Of a stretch of 64,000 bases of DNA, positions 5,306 through 55,300 are shown piece after piece. Source of the DNA: Microthyrium microscopicum. Lineage: Eukaryota. The notes under the pieces were generated by a model. The model had not been told where the DNA came from and made no database searches. It saw only the letters and a program-made list of their open reading frames with translations. The translations under genes were made by a program, and so were the position numbers. The DNA lies in assembly GCA_010405405.1 (NCBI GenBank), contig MU004241.1, positions 186,001-250,000 on the forward strand, in the 5' to 3' direction. Each line of letters begins with the position of its first letter. The first letter of the stretch is position 1.

Positions 5306-5928
5306 ATACGGTGTGTGTATGCGTGGAAGATACAATCAACAGCTTAGTCTCTAGGAGCCAAAGTCCAATGCGAAATTTCCAATGAATATCTGCAATCAAA
5401 TCCAGGCCTAGATCTGTAAAACAATCTTTATGTCTTCTCCATCCTATACCTGTATTTCAATCCGATAATAGCTCATGATTCGCACGCCTTAGCAATCCCT
5501 CGAGGCAGATACCGCCCAGAATAACAACACACTCATCTCAAGCACACTTAAGCCTACCGTAGCATTATCGACAAGGCAGTCAGGTGAGCAAACAAACCTG
5601 CGTACACCCGCAGACGGATGTACCTTACCGCCCCGGATTCGCACAACGAGGACAGACCAAATACTCAAACTACGGGTGAACAAATAGATGACCCGTAGAT
5701 TGGGCAAGCGGCTAACCTACCGTTTCTGTGCCACTCCAAGTCTCACTAATAGGATGCGTATTCGCAGATAAACAAAATCTGCCTCGTAGAAATGTTCAGC
5801 CTTGCCAAGAGATCTTGACAAGTAGATGGTTTAGCGCAGTGGAGTTTCCATACCAAACGCTTTTCAGCGCGAACACCCGACAGCAGCTGTTTGCAATGGA
5901 TATGTCTGGACCTGGTGGATATAGAGAG

Positions 5929-5951
5929 CAAGGTTGCTAAACTAATTAGTA
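5929..5951 (+). repeat. Left TIR CAAGGTTGCTAAACTAATTAGTA
   Basis: Exact reverse complement of 13499-13521; followed by a dense ACTAGT subterminal array up to the gap at 6113. Confidence 0.95.
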
Positions 5952-6112
5952 GCAAAACTAGTCTAGTCTAGTAAACTAGTCGCGTGACTAGTATAGTATT
6001 ATACTATACTAGTCATGTGACTAGTATAGTATAGTACTAGTTTAGAAAAATTTAATAACTAGTTAGTACTAGTATAAAATATTAAACTAGTTAACTAGTA
6101 TAGTATAATAGT

Positions 6113-6717
6113 NNNNNNNNNNNNNNNNNNNNNNNNNNNNNNNNNNNNNNNNNNNNNNNNNNNNNNNNNNNNNNNNNNNNNNNNNNNNNNNNNNNNNNNN
6201 NNNNNNNNNNNNNNNNNNNNNNNNNNNNNNNNNNNNNNNNNNNNNNNNNNNNNNNNNNNNNNNNNNNNNNNNNNNNNNNNNNNNNNNNNNNNNNNNNNNN
6301 NNNNNNNNNNNNNNNNNNNNNNNNNNNNNNNNNNNNNNNNNNNNNNNNNNNNNNNNNNNNNNNNNNNNNNNNNNNNNNNNNNNNNNNNNNNNNNNNNNNN
6401 NNNNNNNNNNNNNNNNNNNNNNNNNNNNNNNNNNNNNNNNNNNNNNNNNNNNNNNNNNNNNNNNNNNNNNNNNNNNNNNNNNNNNNNNNNNNNNNNNNNN
6501 NNNNNNNNNNNNNNNNNNNNNNNNNNNNNNNNNNNNNNNNNNNNNNNNNNNNNNNNNNNNNNNNNNNNNNNNNNNNNNNNNNNNNNNNNNNNNNNNNNNN
6601 NNNNNNNNNNNNNNNNNNNNNNNNNNNNNNNNNNNNNNNNNNNNNNNNNNNNNNNNNNNNNNNNNNNNNNNNNNNNNNNNNNNNNNNNNNNNNNNNNNNN
6701 NNNNNNNNNNNNNNNNN
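6113..6717. other. Assembly gap (N run)
   Basis: 605 consecutive n characters inside the left subterminal region of the hAT element. Confidence 1.
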
Positions 6718-7270
6718 TTGTATTTAGTTTCTATAATATAAAATAATATATAGAAAACTACTTTATAAAATATAATATTATCTAGTAGGAGATAAGATAT
6801 ATAATAGGTATTACTATAATACTACTTACTAGGAAATACTCTAGAGATTCTTATTATATAAATATATTAATATTATATAATCTACTAATAATATTTTAAT
6901 AAAAATATAAAGTAATAAATATATAATAAATAAATTTAATATCTTTTATTATAACTATAATAGAAAAGTAGTCTTTATAGTTTTTTATAAGATTTATATA
7001 TCGTTATAACGCTTAAGAGTAGCTCTATAACCTTATAGAAGTTTAAAGTCTTATTTATATCTAATTTCTATATAATAAAATAATATATAAAAAAGTTACT
7101 TTTATAAATATATTAAGATCTAGAAGGAGATAAGATATATATTATATATCGTTATAATGAGAAAAAATTACTCTATTTTATAGGCAAAAAAATGATTAAT
7201 TACATAAGCATTAGAATTCTAAAAACAAACTACGGAAAGAAAATAACTAAAATTTCAACTAAGACATAAA

Positions 7271-8179
7271 CTAATTATCTTCTGAAGCTATATCTAGCTC
7301 TTCATCCTCAACATAAGTTAAATTAGAGGAATTACTAGGAGTAGGGCTAGAAGCAGCCAAATCTAGCGCTTTAAGCTCTTTTATTTTCTATATTAAATTA
7401 GTATATAAAAGTAATATTATTAATAAAAACTAACCTTCTAAAAGCCTCGTTTGAGCTCTTTCTCTGCTCGTCGTTCTTCCTTAATCTTCTTATAAGTTTC
7501 TAGTAGCTGTTAGTATCTAATTCGACGTGACTTAGCAGAAGCTTCTTATAATTCAATAAGGTGTTTTAGGTTAGATTTATAAGTTTTTTAAACCTAATCT
7601 TTACTACTATAAAAGGTTAGTATAAGTTAGAAATAAAAGAATGAATATAACTTACCTAGAAGCTATTTTGCTAGTTTTAAAAGCAGTTTCAGTCCAATCT
7701 GCTTATAATCCTTTCTAATTAATTACTAGATTTAGTGAAGTTAATAATTTGGTTTTATATCTACGTAATGACCAAATAGCAATAGGCCTATATATAATAG
7801 GAATAGTAGTTTCCTTGCTATTATATAAAAACACAGCTTTATAGTCTACTTCCTTAATTTCTAAGACGAAGTAAACTATAAAAGATTTAACGTTTCTACC
7901 TTCTAAAAGGGGTAAGAAATTAAGATATACACGTTGAAGATTATATTCTTAACGGATATAAACCAAATACCTAAATTCCTATCTTCTAGCCTATTCTTGC
8001 TTTAAAATAAACAAGTTATATTATAATTTATTATTCGAAAGAAGGGCGTTTCCATAGCTAAGAAATTCATTTATAAAACGTTATAGTTTAACTCATGGAT
8101 CGTATTGAGGGCAAGGGTTAGTTTGAGGCACTATATATTATATTAGTATAATATAATAAGAACAAGGTTATAACTTACT
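7271..8179 (-). pseudogene. RIP-mutated spliced second (cargo) gene of the hAT element, ~254 aa, unknown function
   Basis: Minus-strand GT..CTAAY..TAG introns at 8131-8178, 7607-7655 and 7388-7434 keep one frame from an intron-split ATG (A 8179 + TG 8130-8129, context GCCAAAATGCCT) to TAG 7271-7273. Internal stops fit CAA>TAA, TGG/CAG>TAG and CGA>TGA transitions. Further intron-like segments at 8208-8260 and ~8371-8428 are probably 5' UTR. Confidence 0.75.
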
Positions 8180-8582
8180 TTTGGCTAAAAGAACAAGAGA
8201 AGTATAACTAAAATAAAAAGTTAGAAAAAAAATAAAGTTTAAAAATAAAAGATAACTTACCTAAAAAGGCTAGATAAGACTAGGCAAAGAGACTATTAAA
8301 TAGAGAAAAATTTAGCGAGTTAAATAATATAGAATACTAGTACTAACTAGTAGTAGCCTAGTGTTAGAGACTAGAAAGAAGAAAGTTAAAAAAAAAAAAA
8401 AAAAAAAAAAAAAGGTAATAATACTTACTATAGAAAGTAGAGAAGTATTAAATAAAAAGATAAAAGAGGCTAAGTCTAGAAGGTATAAAGAGCACTAGTA
8501 CACAATAGTACTAAAATGTAAAGTAGTAGTAATAGGTAGAAAGTGTAGTAATTGTTTAAAATTCAAAGATTATTAAGGGAAA

Positions 8583-8888
8583 CTTAATATACTTATATTC
8601 TTTTAATACAAGATTTATGCGCTAAAGATACTATTGTAACCGCCGTGATTTAGGCTTTAAAACGCATATCGTTTCAACTAGTTTAGACGCGTAATATGAA
8701 AGTTATTAATAGAAATAGATAGGGCGCGTAAATATTTCACTAAGCGCCCTATCTAGTTCTATTAATAACTTTCACATTACGCGCCCAAACTAGTTAAAAC
8801 GATATACGTTTTAAAGCCTAAATTATGGCGGTTACAACAGTATCTTTAGCGCGTAGATTCTATATTAAAAGAACATAAGTATATTGGG
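8583..8888. repeat. Long inverted repeat (~145-bp arms, 16-nt spacer)
   Basis: 8583-8727 pairs with 8744-8888 (for example AAAGTTATTAATAGAAATAGATAGGGCGC / GCGCCCTATCTAGTTCTATTAATAACTTT); mismatches are mostly transitions. Confidence 0.95.
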
Positions 8889-9576
8889 TAAACCTATTAG
8901 AATTCTTACTTATCTTAGATCTTAATTAATTACTTTGCTTACACTACTTTAAATTGCACTATTACCTACTTATAGCTTACCTATATCCCCCCTTGTTATT
9001 AAAATTCACTATATATATTTTAATCTATTGCCAAAAATCACTTTTATTTTTTTACTTTTTTAAATATTTTATTATATATAGACCTTTGTCACACAATATA
9101 ATACTATATTCTTCTCTTTAAAGAATTAGCTTTTATAGTCCATAGCTTTTATTACTTTTGCTCTGGTTAGCATTAGTTTATTTAGCTTTTAGAAATAATT
9201 AGACTTTAAGTTTAGATTTTATACTTTTAAATTTCTAAGCTTTTAAACTAGTTACTATAACATTAGTTATTATTCTAGGCTCTTCTTATTAAATACAGAA
9301 TAGCTTAGTTATTTTACTTCTATTACTATATTCTTCTTTAGCTCTATAGTTTATAAATCGTTTAAAAAAATAGAAAAATCTTTATTTATTAAAAAACATT
9401 AATTATTTATTATATCTCTATTCTTTATCTTATTTAAGACTTAAAAATTAAGTTCTAGAATTTAGATAGTATACTCTATATAACTCTTAAGTTAGTCTTA
9501 CTTATTCTAGTTTTTTTTCTATTATATTAAAGACTTTATATTTATTTAAATAGTTTATATAATAGCTAACCATAAT

Positions 9577-11901
9577 ATGCTAAATTCTAGCTTTAATGAT
9601 AGCCAGATATCTAATACTGAGTCTATTAGGCCTCAGGATAGTGTATCTAATATTTCTACTACTGCTTCTCTTAGTTAGCAAAAGTATAATAAACCATACT
9701 TTAGGCTAGACGATAATAATTCTAATGCTTATTCAATTATAAAGGGGCTTATTAAAAGGGAATTACTTCCTATTAATATTACTAAGCCTAGACAGGTTAA
9801 AATTATATGTACTCTTTATTCTTATAGTTAGATAAGGGATCTAGAAGGTTTCCAAACCTCTAATTTTGTAGCACATTATAGAGCTAAACATAAAACTATT
9901 GCTACTAAAGAAGAGCAAGAAATTAATAAAGAAACTGTAAGAGAATACTAAGCTAGAATTAAAGCTAATAGTAATAATCCTAGTAATTCTTTTACTATAT
10001 CTATAGTTAGTAATAAACAAGCTAGAGCTAATACTAGATTAGATTTTAATTTAGATACTGCTTTACATTTAATAGTTAAATTTATAGTTAAAAATAACTT
10101 ATCTTTTAACTTATGTAGCTCTAATTCTTTTAAAGAACTCCTAAAGTATTATAATCGTTATAGTCCTTAAATTAATCGTAATAAGCTTCAAGATCTTCTT
10201 TATTCTAATTATAATAAAGCAAAAGATAAGCTAAAACGTGAATTAAAGGCAATAGTTTCTAGAAATAATTATTTTGCTATAGCTTTAGACGTATAGACAT
10301 CTAATAGTAATCAGCATGCCTTTTTAGGTATAATAATTATATATGCTAATAGCAACGTTAAGTTACAGTATAGATTACTAGGATTTGAAAGATTAACTAC
10401 TAATCACACTAGAAAATATCTTTATAGTATATTTAAAAGTATTATTAAGTCTTTTGACTTAGATATTAGTTATTTTATTAGTTTTTTACAAGATAATGCT
10501 AGTAATAACGATATATTAATTACTCAGCTAAGAACTAAAAAGAATCTAATAGGTTCTACTAAGGATTTCTATAATATTCGTTATACTGCACATATTATTA
10601 ATTTAGTTGCTAAAGCTATTATTAGACACTTTGTAGCTAATTATAATAAGGAAATTAAGACCACTAGAACTAGAGCTAGTCTTATTAGTCAATATACTAC
10701 TTCTGCTTAATTAGATGCTATTTTAGATACTATAGCTTCTAAGAGTCTAATAGGTAGACTTAAAAAGGTAGTTCACGCTATTAAATTCAAGTAAGAACAT
10801 TAAAAGAACTTTAAATTATCTAGAAAGTTATATCTTAAAAGAGGAATACTAGACAAAGATATTAAAATAACTAAAATACCTATAGATAATAATACTAGAT
10901 AGAATTCTACGTATTATACTCTAAATTATCTTTTTAAACTTAAACCTTGTGTTAAATACATCTTTACTAATACTAAAGATAAAAAGTTTAAGAAGTTTAT
11001 ATTTAATGAAGCTAATTAGCTAGCATTAAAGCATTTAAAAAATATTCTAGGCTATTTTGAAACGCCTACCGTTATTTTACAAGGGCAGATTTATACTATA
11101 GTTAATCAAACGCTTTTACATATTTATTAATTATTTAGAAATTTAGAAGATCAAATGCTTGAATTTTCTATATCTCTTAATTCTATTATATTAGAAGATT
11201 ATCCTAAGCGTAAATACTTTATTAATGCTATTAAGAAAGGCCTTAATAAGCTAGAAGAATACTATCCTCGTAAAATTATAAATTAAGAAGTAGTAGAAAA
11301 TCTAAAGCCTTTTATTATAGCTTTAATTTTAGATCCTAGATATAAAACAATACACTTTACAAATAATCCTCGTAGCTTATTATTTCACTATCCTCAGATT
11401 TTAACAGACGTTACTAATTTATTTAAAGAAGAGTATAATTTAGCTAAAATAAAACTAAATCCTACTTCTTTAAATCAAGAAAGTAGTAATTTAGATCCTA
11501 TTTTAGACAATAATGAAAACACGTTTTTTATTCCTATTACTAACAATAATACTACTACTACTAAAGAAGAGTATATTCATTATTTAGAACAAGAACGTAC
11601 GCATCCTAAAAAACATCCTTTAGATTACTAGGTTAAAAACCAAAATCAATTTCCTATTCTATTTCATTTAGCTAAAAAATACTTAATAATACCTAGCACT
11701 TCTGCTAGTACTAAAAGTATATTTAGTATTAGAGCAGATATTATTTCAAATAATAGAAATAAACTACTAGCAGAGACTAGTAAAAGGATTATTTAGCTTA
11801 AAAACTAGAAATTAGCAGATATTAATAAGTTTAAAAAATCATTATTATATAAATCTAGAGATGAGGATAGTAGTGAAAGTAAGGTAGAGAGTAATTATTA
11901 A
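9577..11901 (+). pseudogene. hAT transposase, RIP-inactivated (~774 codons)
   Basis: One frame from ATG 9577 to TAA 11899-11901: SIRPQDSVS, BED-finger relic C-TL-(Y)...TSNFVAHYRAKH, IALDV*TS, DNASNN, R(Y)TAHIINLVA, NTR*NSTY, LDPRYK and dimerisation domain LDY*VKNQNQFPILFHLAKKYL-IPSTSAST(K)SIFS. Conserved W codons are now TAG, C is TAT and the catalytic E is AAA. Confidence 0.95.
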
Positions 11902-13317
11902 TGTAGTAGAGTTAGTTAGGTTTATCTTTTAGGCGTTAGGGAGTTATAGGTATTAGTTTAAATAGAAAATATAAAAAGATTAGTTAAAACTAAAGTATTA
12001 TTATTAAAAGTAAAAATAAGAATAAGTTTATTAAGTATTAGAGTATAGAGTAGTAGTATAGATTTAAGTTTTGTAGTATATAGATTATTTAATATAATAT
12101 AGTAAAAGTAGTTAAAACCCTAATATAAAGAACTTATAAATTTATATATTAATTTAAAGATTTACGTTTAACTTTTGATAGATATTAATACTTATAGCTA
12201 ATTATATTACATTAAAATTTAAGAATCTACTACCTATATTTATTCTTTATAAATTGTATATTAAATAATAGCTTATCTTACTCTAATAAGTAAGTTAATT
12301 ATAAAAGTTTAAAAGACGTATTTAAAATATAACTAGTAATACGTATATATTTAAGAAAGATAAGTTAGGTTATTAGATAGAGTAGGCTTAAAGGTATATA
12401 ATAATATATAGTATAGTTTATAAATATTTAGTTTTAGTAGTTATATAAATAGTTTCAAAATAATAATAAAAGATAGTTTAAAGTTTTACTATATAAAGTA
12501 GTATTTTATATTTTGAATTTAGATTTAAATTAGATAGTAGATATATAGAAAATTCTATATCATTATATAGCCCTAAAATAGCTCTATATAATGATATAGG
12601 TTTTATATCTTAAGTATTACAACTCTTAGTAGCATTTAAAATACTTTTAAATAATAAAATATTTTTTTAAATAGTAAATAAGCTTAGATAAGACAAAATA
12701 GATATATAGTTTTATATAGAATATCTATATACTTATTATATAACTAAAATTTATCTAAAAAACTATAATTAAAAGACTTATTTCTACTATTTACTTACTT
12801 TATTATTATAAATATTAATCTTTAGTACTAATATATTTAATATCTTTTTATTACGTAAGTATTATATAAAACTAATACTCTAAGTATACTCGTTACATTA
12901 TAACGAATCAAAATATATATAGGTTTACTTAAAAATAGCTATTTTTAATATAACTAAGTTAAATATAGTATTTTAGTTAACTTTATTCTTTTTATCTATT
13001 ATATTTATGTTCTTAATTCCTAATTATTTGTATTAAAACCTAAAATAATTATATTTAGTCCTAATTCTTTTTGTATTCTATTAGGCATAATTCTAGGAGG
13101 CTATACTTAAAAAACAAGTACTTAAAATTAAAAACTAACTACTCTAGTAATTATTTAAGCTTTATTTTTTAATAAAAAAAAAAGCTCTAACTTTAAAGTT
13201 AAATAACTCTAGAACTAGTTAACGCCTATTAAAACGAAATACACTATTGTATTCTACGTAAAATACTGAATCGAATAATGTATTTTTTAGCCTATAATAT
13301 TACCTAATCTATTTATA

Positions 13318-13521
13318 AAACTAGTATAGAACTAGTACTAGTATACTAGTAGTATACTATAGTACTAGTCTAATTAGTATTATAAAATACTAGACTAGTA
13401 TAGTACTAGTACTAGTACTGGAGTATTCCTAGACTAACTAGTACTAGTAGCTACTTTTAATACTAGATACTAGTCCTACTAGTACTAGTACTAGACTATA
13501 CTAATTAGTTTAGCAACCTTG
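13318..13521. repeat. Right subterminal ACTAGT array plus right TIR (13499-13521)
   Basis: Many ACTAGT/TACTAG units mirroring the left end, ending in TACTAATTAGTTTAGCAACCTTG. Confidence 0.9.
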
Positions 13522-13529
13522 ATAGAGAG

Positions 13530-16378: not shown

Positions 16379-19300
16379 ATGGCCGATTCTTCCGGAGGGC
16401 CCAAGCGGCCTCGCGCTCCTACAATCACTGTAGATACATCAGCTGTTAGCGATGCCCCTCATACTGGTACGTTGGGTTTTGATTTAACCTGTCTGAATGT
16501 CACAGCTAACGATATACAGAACCAGAACCAAGTTCTGCGTTCATATCGCCATTAGGTCGCGATACATTAGCCATTCCCGGCCGAGCACGAGGCGATTCTG
16601 TAAACTCGAATACTTCACAATCCACAACCGGCAGTCATACCGTCGTCAATAGCCCTTCACCCTCGCATCGAAACTCAGACGTTACACATATAGCTGACAT
16701 AAAGAGTGAGGACGATGTTTGGAAGCCCGAAGATGAAAAGGAGGGGGCACTTTTCTATGATGAGAATTCTCCATTTGGCGTGACCAGAGGCCATCTATCC
16801 AAATTGCTACCTCGAAAAGACAAACGCGCATTCTACCATTTACGGGGAATTACTGGATTAGCATCCGCGCTTAGGACGAATCCAAAAACTGGCTTGCCAT
16901 CGGACGAGGAATATCTGAAAGGCGAAATGTCATTCGATGATCTCAAAAATGTAAACCCTGGAGAAGAAAATGAACCTACCAAGGGTCTCACACATAGTAG
17001 CACTGAGCGCAGTTCTCCAAAAGACAAGAAGGATACACTTTACGCGGATCGGAAACGTGTGTTTGGTGACAACCGATTACCAACTCGGAAAGCCAAAAGC
17101 TTCTTTGCACTGGCATGGGAAGCTCTCCAGGACAAGATTCTCATACTACTTTGCATAGCCGCAGTCATCTCCTTGGCTCTCGGAATATACCAATCAGTCA
17201 CGAAAAAGGCCTCAGAGGGCGCAAGAGTCGACTGGGTTGAGGGTGTGGCAATCATGGTTGCTGTGATCATCGTTGTTGGGGTCGGTGCATTGAACGATTG
17301 GCAAAAAGAACGGCAGTTCAAAAAGCTAAATGCTCAAAAGGAGGACCGCTTCGTCAAAGTGATTCGCTCTGGCAAAACCCAAAAAGTGTCCGTTTACGAA
17401 GTTTTCCCCGGCGATGTTATGATCCTGGAGCAAGGCGACGTCTTACCTTGCGATGGAATTCTAATTGAAGGCCATAACGTGAGCTGTGACGAATCCAGTG
17501 CAACTGGTGAATCCGATCTCATGAAAAAGTCTCCAGGCGATGTGGTTTGGAAGGCTCTTGACCAAGGCCAAGATACCAAAAAGTTGGACCCCTTTATCAT
17601 TTCTGGAGCACGAGTCTCTGAGGGTGTAGGCACGTTTTTGGTGACCGCTGTTGGTGTCAATTCCAGCCACGGAAAGCTCATGATGGCCCTCAACGAAGAT
17701 ACTGACGCCACCCCACTTCAGTACAAACTCAACAGACTGGCTTCCTACATCGCTAAGCTCGGTAGTGCAGCTGGTCTGCTCTTGTTCATAGTTCTGTTCA
17801 TTGAATACCTGACGCGTCTTAAGAATCCGACTGATCCGGATGGAACAGCTCGAGATGCCAAGAGCAAGGCACAAGATTTTGTTCGAATTCTTATCGTCGC
17901 CGTTACTATCGTCGTCGTGGCAGTACCAGAAGGTCTGCCTTTGGCTGTAACTCTTGCGCTGGCCTTTGCAACCAAACGAATGACAAAAGACAACAATTTG
18001 GTCCGCCACTTGCAATCTTGCGAAACAATGGGAAATGCTACGGTAATTTGCTCTGACAAGACTGGTACATTGACCCAAAATGTCATGACTGTGGTGGCTG
18101 CAACTTTTGGACGAGGATCTGTTCGAGCAGGGGACAAAGACAAAATGCCAACAAAGCAAGGTGCAAATTTCACAGATGGAACCCCTGGCAGCGCATCAAC
18201 AGATGATAGTGGAACAACTGCTGATGGCTCCGTGGAGCTGCCCATCTATGACTTGCACGAACGTCTGGATCGCGATTTTCAACACATTCTTAAAGACTCC
18301 ATCGTAATCAACAGCACAGCCTTTGAAGGCGAAGAAGAGGGCAAACAAGTTTTCATTGGATCCAAGACCGAAACAGCGCTTCTAGATTTCGCCGCTCGCT
18401 GCTTTGAGTTGACCAATCTCCAAAAAGAGCGAGAAGCATCTACTATCACTCAGCTGATTCCATTCGATTCGCGAAGAAAGGTTATGGGTGTTGTTATCAA
18501 ATCTGCCGATGCAAAATACCGCATGTTCATCAAAGGTGCCTCTGAGATTGTACTGTCAAAGTGTACCAAGGTTGTGGATGATCCACTCAATTCGACCCAT
18601 GCGACGGATCTGTCTGAAGAGGATAAAAGTACGCTTGGCTCTATCATTTCTTCATATGCTTCAATGTCATTACGAACCATTGGTATGGGTTACCGGGACT
18701 TTGCGCAATGGCCTCCTCAGGGTGCGAAACACTCACCAGACAATCCCTCGGATCCCGACTTTGACGATATCTTCCATGATATAACTTGGTTGTCTGTGGT
18801 TGGCATTCAAGATCCAATGCGAAAGGGTGTCGCAGAAGCAGTGGCCACTTGCGAACGAGCTGGTGTTCGTGCAATTATGGTGACAGGAGACAACGTTGAA
18901 ACTGCCCGAGCCATTGCAAAGGATTGCGGTATTCTCAAAGAAGGGGGAATTGTCATGGAAGGTCCTAAACTTCGAAGTCTTTCCCCAGCCCAGCTACAGG
19001 AGGTCCTTCCAAAACTTTGTGTTGTTGCTCGATCCAGCCCGGAAGACAAAAAGACACTTGTTCAAGCACTCCGCGGAGAAGGTCATGTTGTCGCTGTTAC
19101 AGGTGATGGTACCAATGATGCGCCTGCTCTCAAAGCAGCTGATGTAGGCTTTTCCATGGGTATTGCTGGAACGGAAGTGGCGAAAGAAGCATCAGACATC
19201 ATTTTGATGGACGACAACTTTTCCTCCATTGTCAAAGCACTTGCCTGGGGCCGTACCATCAACGATGCGGTCAAGAAGTTTCTGCAGTTCCAGATTACAG

Positions 19301-20361
19301 TCAACATCGTGGCCGTTTTGCTAACGTTCATCACCGCTGTCAGTAGTGACGAAGAAGAGTCGGTGTTGAACGCTGTACAACTGCTATGGGTCAACCTCAT
19401 CATGGACACTTTTGCTGCTCTGGCTCTAGCAACAGATCCACCCGCTGGTAGCTTGTTTGACCGCAGGCCCGAGCCTCGCGATGCACCCTTGATTACTCCA
19501 ACCATGTGGAAGACTATTATCGGCCAAACCATCTACCAACTCATTGTTACCTTGGTCATGTTTTTCGCTGGCAAAAAGTTCATTCCTCCATTCAACAACA
19601 TGTCCGCGGCAGAACTGAAATCCGACAAGAATACTCTCCTGTTTAATACTCTGATCTTCAACGTCTTCGTCTGGATGCAGATCTTTGACGCGCTCAATTG
19701 TCGACGGATCGATAATTCCAAGAACATCTTTGAGGGTTTCTGGCGCAATAATTTCTTCATGGGCATTATAGCAATAATGATCGGAGGACAAGCCATCATC
19801 GTCAGCTTCGGCGGTGCTGCTTTTGTCGTCACCCCCATTTACGGCTATCATTGGGCCATCTCTATTGTTCTCGGCTTCATCACATTACCCATCGGATTCC
19901 TCATCCGCTGCATTCCTGACCGTTATGTCCGCATTGATCTCCCCGTCAAACGCTTCATGGCCGCTAATACGCCCGCCTGGCTTCAACGCTATCTGGCCCG
20001 CCGGCGCAAACCACCGCCAGTCATTGAGGCCGGCGACATGGACGACGACCACATCGGCAAGGAGTGGCATCGCGTGTATAACCAGGTGCATGATGATTTG
20101 GCGCTCTACAAGCAACTTCGAGGTCGTCGATTACATGTCATCAAAATGGGCATCCGTCATCCCCGCGAGCTGCTCAAGAGCCATCGCAGTAGAAGTGGAT
20201 CGCGCAACAGCGTGTTGCCTGGTCTTGTAGCGGCTGGTGCTACGCTGGGCAGTGTTGGCGGTGGAATTACACCGGATCGTCGGTCTATCAACTCTCGGCG
20301 GCCGGAAGATGGGGATGCTAGCTCGACTGCGCCGTCAAGAAGAGGAACGGACGAAGTGTGA
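16379..20361 (+). CDS. PMC1: P-type IIB (PMCA-type) vacuolar calcium-transporting ATPase
   Basis: ATG 16379 and intron 16467-16519 join in frame to the long ORF. Motifs TGES, VAVPEGLPLAVT, DKTGTLT, KGASE, TGDGTNDAPAL, QLLWVNLIMDT. Confidence 0.95.
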
Positions 20362-31514: not shown

Positions 31515-32088
31515 TATGACGGCTCATAACGGCCACCCTGGCCACTTCACCAAAACCAAAAAGTACAACAAACACAGAAATGTAAAGGCAATTATTACAC
31601 CAAAACCAGCACATATTTAGACATTCTGAAGAAGCCGAAATAGCAAAGTGAATTTTGCATTATTTTTGAGAGCTAGAAAAGTCTCTTCAATTATGGTTGT
31701 TGAAGTTGAATCTTTGATTTAAGAAATATATAAAGATATAAAGTTGAGAAAGGGGTCGCTAATTTAGAGGGTCTAGTCCTTACTAACTTAGGGGGCTATC
31801 TCGCTAATTTAGCGGGTAAGAAAGGGCATCTTTATCAAGCTCCACTTTTTTGTCAAAAAGCAAAAATATCCAAGATTAGGTATGAAGTTGCTCTTACTTT
31901 GTTAAAATACATAGAAATATTATTTTTGAACATTATGAAAATTCAGAAAAATTCAAGTTGCTATTTAGCCTCTTTAGAATCTTTAAATATAGGCTATTTG
32001 TGGTGTAAATAAATGATTTGTGAACACATAGATTTTTGGATTTTGGATTTTGGTGAAGTGGCCAGGGTGGCCGTTATGAGCCGTCATA
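31515..32088. mobile_element. MITE / non-autonomous TIR element (~574 bp)
   Basis: 41-bp perfect TIR TATGACGGCTCATAACGGCCACCCTGGCCACTTCACCAAAA at both ends, imperfect inverted similarity to about 160 bp, AT-rich non-coding interior. Flanked by ATTAC at 31510-31514 and 32089-32093 (alternatively a TA TSD). Confidence 0.92.
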
Positions 32089-47753: not shown

Positions 47754-48600
47754 ATGAAGTTCTCTCTCCTTGCTCTATCAGCTGCCAGCCTTGCTGTCGC
47801 TGCTCCAACGTAAGCTTCAGAATTTTGGAATGGATGTCAGTAGCTAACTGTTTGGAAGTATTCTTGCTGAGCGTCAAGTGCCAGCAACACCAGCCCCTGG
47901 AAGCCCGGAAAGCTTCCAACAAGCCAGCTCAATCATCGGCGGACTCGCTAAGGGCCTCGGAGGATCTCCCGGCGGTGCGGGTATTGGAAGTATTCTTCAA
48001 GGCCTTGCCGATGGCATTGGTGCAGCTGGAAAATCTGGCAAATCCGCCATTGTCGCCCGTCAAGTTCCGGCCACACCAGCCCCAGGAAGCCCAGAAAGCT
48101 TCAAACAAGCCAGCTCAATCATAGGTGGACTTGCAAAGGGCTTAGGAGGAGCGCCAGGCGGCGCTGGTATTGGAAGCATTCTTCAAGGCCTTGCCGATGG
48201 CATCGGTCAAGCTGGCAAATCCGCCATCGTTGCCCGTCAAGTTCCTGCCACACCCGCTCCAGGAAGCCCAGAGAGTTTCAAACAAGCATCTTCAATCATA
48301 GGCGGTCTAGCAAAAGGTGTATCGGGCTCTTCCATCATCCCTGGGGGCGCTGAGATTGGAAAATTGCTTCAAGGTATCGCTGATGGTTTGGCACAGGGAG
48401 CTACAACAGGCAAATCCAACATCGTGGCACGTCAAGCTCCAGCAGGCAGCCCAGAGAGCTTCGCGCAAGCAAGTTCAATCATTGGAGGGCTTGCAAAGGG
48501 AGTTTCTGGCTCTACCCTCATTCCAGGAGGCTCTCAAATTGGAAGCATGCTTCAAGGAATTGCTGATGGTCTGTCGCAAGCAGGCAAGGGCGCTCACTAA
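47754..48600 (+). CDS. Secreted four-repeat peptide precursor (Kex2-processed repeat protein-like), 265 aa
   Basis: ATG 47754 MKFSLLALSAASLAVAAPT, intron 47810-47858 in frame. Repeats start at Gln codons 47875, 48061, 48238 and 48433, each preceded by ER/AR. TATAAG at about 47637. Confidence 0.9.
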
Positions 48601-52387: not shown

Positions 52388-55300
52388 CTATGGTGTTCCG
52401 ACAGGTGCTCGCAACGCTCTCACCCGCTCTAGCACCGACCGTCTCCGCGCTCGCACATCTACTACCCAAGCCGTCCGTCCATCTTCCTCCTCGTCAATAC
52501 GGTCTACAACACCATAACTCTTGCCACGCACTGGACTACCTTTCAGACTGCTCACGCTAGCATCCATAAATCCAAGTTTACGCAGCTGAACTTCGAGTAC
52601 ATCGACATCACCACTGCGCTTCTCTACCATTCCCGTCATCTTGCGTATCGTACGCTCAACCGCCTCCACGCTCGGTGCATTTTGTGCATCTGCACGTACA
52701 AGTTTTGCATGCGCCATTGCGAGTGCGGCCTCCGCTTCTGCCACACCCTTGCGGAATTGAGCAAGCTGATTGTTCAAGTTACGCTGAAGTGTAGCAGCAG
52801 CTGGATCCAGAGGTGCTGCACGTCGACGTTCACGCGCAGATGGATCAGTGTGCGCGGCGAGAAAAGTTCGCATTTTGCGGGCGTCATCGCGCGCACTGCG
52901 TAGACTCCGGTTAACAGCAGCGAGGGGTGGTAGGAGAGAGAGGATGTTGTCAACAGATTCTTGGACGAGATCTTGATCCAGAGTCTGTTCAACGTGTTCC
53001 AGATGAGTGACTTCGTCGAGGGTCCAGACGCGGGAGTGGTCGGAGAGATCAGTGCCGTCAGGGAGGGCGTCTGAGGCCAATTCGGTGTGACCCGCAACAA
53101 ATGAGGAAAGGGAACGGGAGTTGCGGCCAAGTGTGTCGATCATGCTGTTGATGTCGCGATAGACTCGCTCTGCATTGCCAGCAGGGCCATCCATAGAGAC
53201 TAAACCAGCGTAATCTTGATGTGCGATGAACGGCTCCAAGGCGAGAGTGGGTTCGATTGGCTGAGCGAGAAGAGCGCGGATTTCTTCATCAGCGTCATCA
53301 TGGAGATCAGAGACAGCATCATTTCGAGGAGCTTGTTCGGGAAGAGGTTGTTCTGATGATCGAACAATATGGGCGGGTTGAGGAACAGCATTTTGTTGAG
53401 CTTGGCTCATGGAAGGTGGAGGGCCTGAGATTGGAGGACGAACTGGAGATGGTGATCGGGGTGAGTCCTGTTCCTGAGGAGGTGGGAATGAATATGGTGG
53501 TATTCCAGAAGGAGTTGTGGATGCGCCTAGATTAGGGAAAGTTCGAGGAGGGCCAGACATTGGTGGTGTTGGCACTGGGGGCGGTATGCCAGAACTCTCT
53601 CCCAATGGAGACGACGAGTATGGTTGTTGGCCACGTAGCCCTTGAACGGACTTTGGCATTGGCGGAGTATTCGAAAATGGTGTGCTGACTGGTTGGAAGG
53701 GAGAAGATCCAGTATCTCCACTGCCTGGCGGTGATTGATTCATCCCCATTCGAGGCGGTGTTACGACAACCTCACTCGTGTGATTACTGTCCTCTGGTTC
53801 CGGTGATTCATCTTCGAACTCGTCCTCTTCATCCTCTTCTTCGTCTTCCTCCTGGCTGCCATCTTCATCGTCTCCTTCTCCATCGTCCTCGGCGTCATCA
53901 TTCTCTATTGATCGCATGACACGCGGCTCTTTAGTGGATGATTCTTCGGAAGATGGACCAGTAGCTGGAGACGATGCGGGTTTCGAAGTGACCTGTGGAG
54001 GCTCCGGTCGTATGGACTGCTTTGCTTCGGGTGACGCTGGAGTTTGCGTAATTCCTGGTTGTGGTGATCGACTAGTCGATGCTTCTGGGATATCAAACAA
54101 ACCTCTCTTGGGCTTGTCCGGGTCCTCTTTGACAACAGGACTGAATAGTGATCGCTGTGGCGCATCGGCCTTTGGCTCTTGATTTGAAGAGCCAAGACCC
54201 AAAGATCCGAATCCCATGTTACTGAACGAGCTCTTTCCATCCGCCTCATCTTCAGTACCTTTTTCTTTTGCTGTCTCGCCAGGTATGAATAACGAAGGAG
54301 CTTTGAACGGGCTCTGTTCCCCGAATAGCTTTGGTCGAGTTTCGGGCTGAGGTGTTGCATCATCATCCATCTCTTCTTCTTTTGATTTGCTTTCGCTCGG
54401 CGCGGGAAAGGATGACTGTTGACCAAAAGGTGTTGCCGCCGCCGACGGAGCCCCGAAGCTTGAATTGCCGAGCAGCGATTGGTTAGCAAGCGTCGAGCCA
54501 CCTGTACCAGAGTCAATCGACACTGTGGAGCCAAAACTAGGTTGTGAACTCATACCACCAAAGTTAGATGTTTGTGTAGATGTCAGAGGTGCACCACTGG
54601 CAAACGCCGGCTTGGCAGCATTGCCACCAGCAGCTGCAAAAGGAGATGCCATTGGGGATTTCGTTGTTCCCATTGACCCAAACGGCGAGGATGCTGCCGT
54701 AGGAGACCCAAACTTTGCAAAGCCAGACCGTTGTGATGCATTGCCTCCAAATGGAACTGCAGGTTGAGCCATGGTAGTAGGAGAAGCAAAAGAACTAGGA
54801 GCGGATGGCTTTCCAAAAGCTGCAGCCCCAAAAGCAGGCTGTCCAAAAGCAGAGGCTCCAAAGGCAGGTTGTGCAGGTTTTCCCATCTGGGATGGCTGAC
54901 CAAATGCTGCTGAAGCTGCTGCCGGTTTTCCAAGCTGCGATGGCTGGCCAAACGCTGCGGGAATTGTAGGTTTTCCAAACGACGAGGCTCCAAAAGCAGG
55001 CTGTGCAGGCTTTCCCATCTGTGATGGCTGACCGAATGCTGCGGGGGCTGCTGCCGGTTTTCCAAGCTGAGAGGGAGATCCAAATCCTGTAGCTCCAAAT
55101 GGCGATTGTGCTGGTTGGCTCGCAATTGGCGATATAGCTTGCGCTGGCGCGTTCGATGTTGCTGCGCCTTCAGGAAAAGCCAGGCCTGGACATGGAATGG
55201 AGTTTTGAACAGCTGCGTCGTTGACAAACCACCATGATCGGAGGAAACCTTCGTAATTAAGAACGGTTAAAGCAGGCAAGGTTTTAGACGATTCATCTAG

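Follow-up and report, generated by a model that had tools for sequence, protein, structure and literature searches.

In Microthyrium microscopicum, a hAT transposon degraded by RIP carries a second gene, gene 2, opposite its transposase. We consider it very probable that gene 2 has long belonged, as an accessory gene, to one clade of fungal hATs, that it sits in a central cassette and that it was once under purifying selection, with every copy here now RIP-dead. The cassette comprises gene 2, a long inverted repeat and then the region up to the transposase start. The element lies in a window of 64,000 nucleotides (contig MU004241.1, positions 186,001 to 250,000), and the evidence on gene 2 comes from one genome, the M. 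microscopicum assembly. Gene-2 copies were collected by a DNA search (11 matches) and two protein searches (19 and 18 matches), giving 21 distinct loci in four subfamilies, with 4 in A, 6 in B, 8 in C and 3 in D. The window copy is of subfamily A.

A hAT element with a divergent second gene

The window contains a complete hAT element of 7,593 bp with 23-nt TIRs and an 8-bp TSD. Base composition along the window shows it as an AT-rich block at ~5930-13520 between flanks of ~45-50% GC. The left TSD (ATAGAGAG, 5921..5928) recurs as the identical 8-mer at the right end (13522..13529), and the left TIR (5929..5951, plus strand) is 100% complementary to the right TIR (13499..13521, minus strand), the two ends pairing as an inverted repeat. 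The transposase occupies a single frame at 9562..11901 (plus strand) that is broken by RIP and has ATA in place of its first Met. With stops read through, this frame matches PF05699, the hAT C-terminal dimerisation domain (E 7e-15, 55 bits versus a cut-off of 21.4). Of the putative DDE triad, the first two aspartates are invariant in a seven-row transposase alignment and the last glutamate is intact in locus L019 and mutated in the RIP direction in others; a presumed CxxH is visible in the transposase family reconstruction. The element belongs to the hAT superfamily. An assembly gap covers 6113..6717 in the window copy, where the intact copy C1 has tandem repeats of ~330-340 bp in its left part. 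RIP indices are 1.52/0.38 for the element versus 0.63-0.72/1.33-1.34 for its flanks, and C>T or G>A changes account for 421 of the 429 differences that separate four close copies from their reconstruction, a proportion that is partly due to how the consensus was built.

A sequence-only reading of this DNA had proposed a hidden second gene inside the transposon. The gene is real; it lies on the minus strand and is divergent from the transposase. Three canonical introns of 47-49 nt had been described, and all three are present with GT, branch site and AG, but the total is five, with two more upstream. Removal of 8178-8131, 7655-7607 and 7434-7388 yields the spliced frame as it had been quoted. 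In the direction of the gene, all on the minus strand, intron 1 (8371..8428, 58 nt, poly-T) and intron 2 (8208..8260, 53 nt in the window copy), both absent from the earlier description, flank a 110-nt exon 2 (8261..8370) that is probably 5' leader and has no codon-position signal. There follows a 29-nt exon (8179..8207) that ends on the A of the probable start codon, and intron 3 (8131..8178, 48 nt, phase 1), which interrupts the ATG in subfamily A. The main exon (7656..8130, 475 nt) encodes a conserved alpha/beta core domain. After intron 4 (7607..7655, 49 nt, phase 2), exon 5 (7435..7606) encodes a linker and a basic, charged helix with dN/dS ~0.38, and measures 172 nt in subfamily B as well as here. 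Intron 5 (7388..7434, 47 nt) has phase 0, as it does in B, C and D, and the last exon (7259..7387) supplies the end of the basic helix, a Ser/Pro linker, the acidic tail and the family stop at 7259-7261.

The length of 255 codons assigned earlier followed the right frame but ended on a stop made by RIP. Position 7271-7273 is a sense codon in copy C1, the family stop is level with the subfamily B stop, and the true protein has 258 aa. Of the 258 codons in the window copy, 14 are premature stops; 8 of these are sense in C1, and the remaining 6 are TAA or TAG in all four subfamily-A copies.

A start codon split by an intron had also been read from the window, and it exists, but only in subfamily A. 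Its A lies at 8179 and its TG at 8130-8129, and the split A|TG reads ATG in two of the four subfamily-A copies and ATA in the other two. The same junction in subfamily B is a lysine codon, and the in-frame start is found 11 codons before it, as ATG in two of six copies and as ATA in four. In subfamily C the start falls on the second base of the small exon, as ATG in four of seven uninterrupted copies and ATA in three, and the first residues of the protein are similar to those of subfamily A. The corresponding site in subfamily D is ATA in 3/3 copies. In each of subfamilies B, C and D, an in-frame start of its own, either ATG or an ATA produced by RIP, precedes the intron 3 equivalent by 11-15 codons.

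We also considered an upstream coding extension, in which the two upstream exons and the 29-nt exon would form a hydrophobic N-terminus in frame and the split ATG would be internal. It was dropped as the main reading because exon 2 lacks a codon signal, the A-B alignment of exon 1 needs frame-shifting gaps, and B, C and D have start sites of their own. The 110-nt exon is equal in length in A and B and joins in frame; between these subfamilies its transversions fall 8/9/8 by codon position, with dN/dS of 0.58 in frame and 0.59-0.85 off frame. The codon-position test has little power on fast-evolving exons, and exon 5, which is coding, likewise shows no bias (10/10/12). The upstream exons are probably a 5' leader and the split ATG the start in subfamily A, as far as these sequences indicate, and the upstream exons may yet have a coding role.

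Pairing, selection and exchange of the cassette

The sequence-only reading had asked whether homologues always sit opposite a hAT transposase. When coordinates were compared with transposase matches, all 21 gene-2 loci were head to head with one, and none (0/21) lay outside a hAT. Four of them are 10-27 kb from the transposase through insertions, and shared TSDs show that two of these four are single elements. Among transposase loci without a gene-2 match, the three inspected have an N gap at the gene-2 position and a fourth is a 1.1-kb contig. An 8-bp TSD also flanks copies C1, C5, B' and D. A subfamily-C element is apparently nested in the transposase of a subfamily-B copy (C5:84348-114400; L021, L077). 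We note that sequencing run X5, from organism B, contained pieces of the element at depth 2-8, several of them equal to the window sequence; carry-over is suspected and they were left uncounted.

Main-exon identity is 73% between A and B and 28-37% between A/B, C and D. The order of intron phases, 1 and 2 around the main exon and then 0 for the last intron, is kept in all four subfamilies, more than chance would give, and subfamily C has one extra intron. All four proteins (~260-330 aa) consist of the core, a Ser/Pro-rich or low-complexity linker, the basic helix and then the acidic tail. Copies lacking the segment, a closed frame after de-RIPping and a separate nested element had been named beforehand as grounds for rejecting the gene, and none of these three checks counted against it.

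RIP cannot produce transversions. Across 104 ungapped core codons compared between A and B, transversions number 6/1/17 at codon positions 1/2/3, and dN/dS, calculated on reconstructions, is ~0.14. Over the whole main exon the A-B transversion rates are 0.079/0.026/0.219 at the three positions, versus 0.104/0.094/0.178 in the transposase. The second-position rate of 0.026 versus 0.094 implies that the core is on average at least as constrained as the transposase. These patterns indicate that the core exon was under purifying selection during subfamily divergence, while the elements were active; neutral decay after capture is not what dN/dS of ~0.14 and the 6/1/17 distribution show. Of the two origins offered earlier, that of an accessory gene of the hAT family is supported by a core under purifying selection and by 21 of 21 loci divergent from the transposase. 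The other, a captured host gene, lost support at least as a recent event, since the subfamilies are deeply diverged and no intact host copy turned up. Among the genome matches, of which the search scored the best candidates only, all 21 loci carry stops.

Between the divergent genes lies an internal inverted repeat (8586..8885) with 145-nt arms at 8586-8730 and 8741-8885 and a 10-nt loop. An equivalent repeat separates the genes in every subfamily, with arms of 145 nt in A, 105 in B, 76 in C and 215 in D. Mismatches between arms are mostly transitions, with transversions in 2/16 (A), 5/17 (B), 2/7 (C) and 9/28 (D). Compared with each other, the four subfamily repeats have nothing in common beyond short, weak matches that do not exceed 33 nt. 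A near-perfect repeat within each subfamily, together with so little similarity among them, implies that the shape was kept while the sequence turned over. Symmetry in subfamily A ends sharply after ~150 nt. In the family reconstruction, donor-like GTATGT sites stand at the outer edge of both arms, at 8594 (minus strand) and 8877 (plus strand), and could be the start of mirrored leader introns. The subfamily-D palindrome at L069:3681-4321 has three arms, one of them duplicated in tandem. At L029:1345-2346 the subfamily-C palindrome region is doubled in tandem ~827 nt apart, beside a 10-N gap, and may be an assembly artefact.

In the transposase tree, C4 and C18 (B') stand apart from the remaining subfamily-B copies, and C falls into two lineages. 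Yet gene 2, its repeat and the stretch reaching almost to the start of the transposase differ by ~0-3% transversions between B and B' and between C1 and C2, with 5-6% towards the 3' end of gene 2 in the B-B' comparison. The transposases across these same splits differ by 10-27% transversions and are ~53-56% identical, and the left ends and TIRs differ as well. The shared tract in C is ~2.4 kb; in B the right breakpoint lies ~250 nt before the transposase start and the left breakpoint is hidden by a gap. The breakpoints of the two swaps are unlike. We read these tracts as two exchanges in which gene 2 and its repeat passed, as one cassette, between backbones whose ends and transposases are not the same. 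Occurrence of the same cassette with such different transposases suggests that the protein need not match one transposase, yet it travels with its repeat.

Relatives of the transposase and of the gene-2 protein

The nearest database transposase, P0006 (KAK0384767.1, labelled Sarocladium strictum), is 32% identical over 85% and shows 29-33% identity to the genome's own transposase copies. A metagenome scan confirmed 144 transposase relatives, of which 80 loci were kept. The gene-2 profile had no match in these 80 loci (best i-E 4), many of which have less than 2 kb upstream on short contigs. Complete ends were found in 3 of the 18 metagenome loci examined (L086, L090 and L097). These relatives have a similar TIR start and an 8-bp TSD, and 736-834 nt separate their left end from the beginning of the transposase match. 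Two of them, L090 and L097, are 3.1-kb elements in which no gene 2 was detected. Since such close relatives transpose without it, gene 2 is dispensable for hAT chemistry. The subfamily-D TIR (L069:851) is nearly identical to that of the compact 3.1-kb relatives (L090:2115) over the first 14 nt. In a quick tree of 67 rows, in which RIP skews composition and from which rows covering fewer than 330 residues and some split own copies were left out, a branch with SH-aLRT 99 sets the 17 own-genome transposases apart from all other rows. A single gain of the cassette in the ancestor of A-D would be the simplest reading.

HMMER against 1.84 billion representative proteins gave one match to gene 2, P0005. 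Word-index searches returned no homologue among 7,999 candidates of 276-2000 aa and P0005 alone among 1,563 candidates of 83-275 aa. P0005, a hypothetical protein of M. microscopicum, was rejected as an outside homologue: it is 100% identical to part of copy L018 and, being a gene-caller prediction from that DNA, offers no independent evidence. PDB sequences gave 0 matches, viral contigs gave 0 confirmed among 179 pattern matches, and Foldseek against viral models gave none at E ≤ 0.001. No Pfam family matched gene 2 at its curated cut-off. For the main exon of 20 RIP-damaged copies, Pfam gave no TET/JBP dioxygenase match, sub-threshold NPCC in 3 and otherwise nothing. RIP-destroyed repeats can hide protein families that are missing from protein databases.

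Two AlphaFold models with pLDDT of 45 and 49 agree on a helix, three strands and a helix for residues 3-72. The top row of both fold searches is an unrelated racemase (Z 5.8 and 4.9). Hjc, YraN-like and tRNA-endonuclease (EndA-like) chains recur at Z 3.3-5.7, with rmsd 2.7-4.8 over 62-101 aligned residues, for models of pLDDT below 50. Every match falls below the background of Z 7-8 for unmatched models, a result that speaks neither for a new fold nor against one. By eye there is no PD...(D/E)xK motif, and under RIP D becomes N and E becomes K; two glutamates are common to the four family reconstructions. An RRM (PF00076), suggested by eye, was discarded after hhalign against 30 RRM domains of the genome gave a probability of 0.7% (E 0.08, 19 columns); no nucleic-acid-binding motif emerged. 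With the probable start there is, by eye, no obvious N-terminal hydrophobic leader. The role proposed earlier, a transposition regulator or anti-silencing factor, was inferred, and no sequence or fold match assigns a function.

Possible roles, known systems and other features of the window

The four protein-repeat pairs offer a built-in comparison of matched and mismatched partners. Gene 2 was kept under selection across elements whose transposases are ~40% identical; a subfamily-specific palindrome accompanies it in every case, and the two are exchanged together. The inverted repeat may serve as a mirrored promoter or control region that would drive joint, outward transcription of gene 2 and the transposase. 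The gene-2 product would then be a nuclear helper that binds nucleic acid or chromatin, acting on its own cassette and not on the transposase, and keeping the element expressed against host silencing. It would work like VANC, without being claimed as a VANC. Ectopic recombination or gap repair may carry the cassette from one backbone to another, and the palindrome might promote this. We give the core of this proposal, a mirrored control region with an anti-silencing helper that acts on the cassette, a little less than an even chance. It draws support from exchange across transposases that are only about half identical (~53-56%), which speaks against a tight transposase partner, and the travel of the protein with its repeat would fit a protein-target pair of the kind reported for VANC (PMC5735166). 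Against a protective role counts that every copy was killed by RIP, so RIP was not stopped.

A bolder reading, which we think rather unlikely, takes the orphan protein family and a palindrome rebuilt from new sequence in each subfamily as an exchangeable plug-in among hAT backbones, in which the protein would recognise or cut its own palindrome to license expression or spread the cassette. If true, this would be a counter-silencing or homing system of fungi that is specific for sequence and is built on a new fold or on a nuclease fold put to another use.

Harbinger, CACTA and MuDR elements encode second proteins, and gene 2 might similarly assist transposition as a cofactor, by binding to the transposase or to the ends of the element. 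Its constant coupling to the transposase in one geometry, gene-2 subfamilies that largely follow transposase clades, and a charged helix that could be a protein-binding surface all favour such a partner. We nevertheless regard it as unlikely, given two independent cases of one cassette beside transposases ~53-56% identical with different TIRs, and the 3.1-kb sister elements without gene 2.

That gene 2 is selfish or host-facing cargo riding the element (drive, incompatibility, toxin-antidote, or a trait aiding the fungus) seems quite improbable to us. Orphan status, cassette exchange and long retention are compatible with selfish cargo, and host-facing cargo on fungal hAT-like elements is known from ToxhAT (PMC6737239); however, the gene resembles no known family, never occurs outside the element and, judged by eye from the probable start, has no evident hydrophobic leader.

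We are more than usually doubtful that the core is a restriction-endonuclease-like domain (PD-(D/E)XK, Hjc/EndA) that recognises or cuts the cruciform of the repeat and so makes the cassette recombine and spread. Both weak models do bring up Hjc, YraN-like and tRNA-endonuclease chains, a long palindrome accompanies gene 2 in every subfamily, and accessory nucleases exist in DNA transposons, as described for KolobokE and KolobokP (PMC9587614); but all Z scores are below background, the racemase tops both runs, pLDDT is under 50 and no PD...(D/E)xK motif is visible.

Passive capture of a host gene, or nesting of a separate element, without any function for the hAT is largely refuted and highly improbable: the cassette does move between backbones, and capture of a host gene with RIP decay by a fungal hAT is documented for histone H3 (PMC6710886), but no intact host original was found among the best-scoring candidates, selection acted during subfamily divergence, 0/21 copies lie outside a hAT, the 25 longest inverted repeat pairs listed for the window include none that flanks gene 2, and the B and C breakpoints differ.

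The compact relatives (P0006; L086, L090, L097) are of the same transposase lineage as the present element, and gene 2 was not detected in the metagenome loci among them. VANDAL21 of Arabidopsis is a plant Mutator-like element. Binding and demethylation by VANC21, with tandem target repeats, are demonstrated (Hosaka 2017, PMC5735166; PMC8616336), and the first of these reports gives a precedent for an accessory protein that co-evolves fast with its target repeats. As here, a DNA transposon combines an accessory gene with non-coding repeats that vary from one related element to the next (PMC5735166); VANDAL21 has tandem repeats, whereas the present system is a fungal hAT with inverted repeats, known from sequence alone, for whose protein database searches found no outside homologue.

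In the Puccinia TET+ hAT7 elements, a TET/JBP gene is exchanged passively between elements and an anti-silencing role is proposed (Kojima 2025, PMC12730594). Both cases are fungal hATs with a second, non-transposase gene upstream of the transposase that passes between elements without a terminal structure of its own. TET+ hAT7 carries a recognisable TET/JBP dioxygenase and has a 7-bp TSD, in contrast to an orphan gene and an 8-bp TSD here, and the cited hAT7 families have their accessory gene in the same orientation and no palindrome at the ends of the shared region, whereas here the genes diverge around a long inverted repeat.

The hAT of Pseudocercospora fijiensis that carries histone H3 (Dhillon 2019, PMC6710886) is likewise a RIP-killed Dothideomycete hAT with TIRs of ~20 bp, an 8-bp TSD and an extra gene amplified with the element. 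It captured a housekeeping gene, and the host still has the original; in the present case the best-scoring genome candidates included no such original, and divergence took place under selection within the elements. ToxhAT (McDonald 2019, PMC6737239) resembles the present element as a fungal TIR element with a hAT-like transposase, extra genes and internal inverted repeats. It is a 14-kb composite of eight genes for which no TSD was found, unlike the two-gene, 7.5-kb multi-copy family with TSDs described here.

The earlier statement that hAT elements normally encode only a transposase has published fungal exceptions (PMC12730594, PMC6710886 and PMC6737239). Their extra genes are, in those accounts, mostly recognisable (TET/JBP, histone H3, ToxA), and gene 2 is an orphan. 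Extra genes in fungal hATs are already published; the orphan protein and the unusual cassette set this case apart. Among the papers listed by the literature searches, none describes a hAT with a divergent orphan gene and a central palindrome.

Four further features were noted elsewhere in the window. A 1,283-codon open frame at 16510-20361 (plus strand) encodes a P-type cation (Ca2+-like) ATPase. Short repeats at 54807-55112, read on the minus strand, resemble what we take to be FG-type nucleoporin repeats. Two pairs of direct repeats of 141-169 nt at 47872-48583, with a spacing of 183-186 nt, are probably a repeated protein domain. A MITE-like element of 574 bp at 31515-32088 has TIRs with a 48-nt core (~150 nt in relatives) and an apparent 6-bp flanking direct repeat. 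It has twelve near-full-length genome matches including itself, at 70-100%, and its end sequence is also seen on C1, C2 and C7 in pairs with a distance of ~11.4 kb, possibly marking the autonomous partners.
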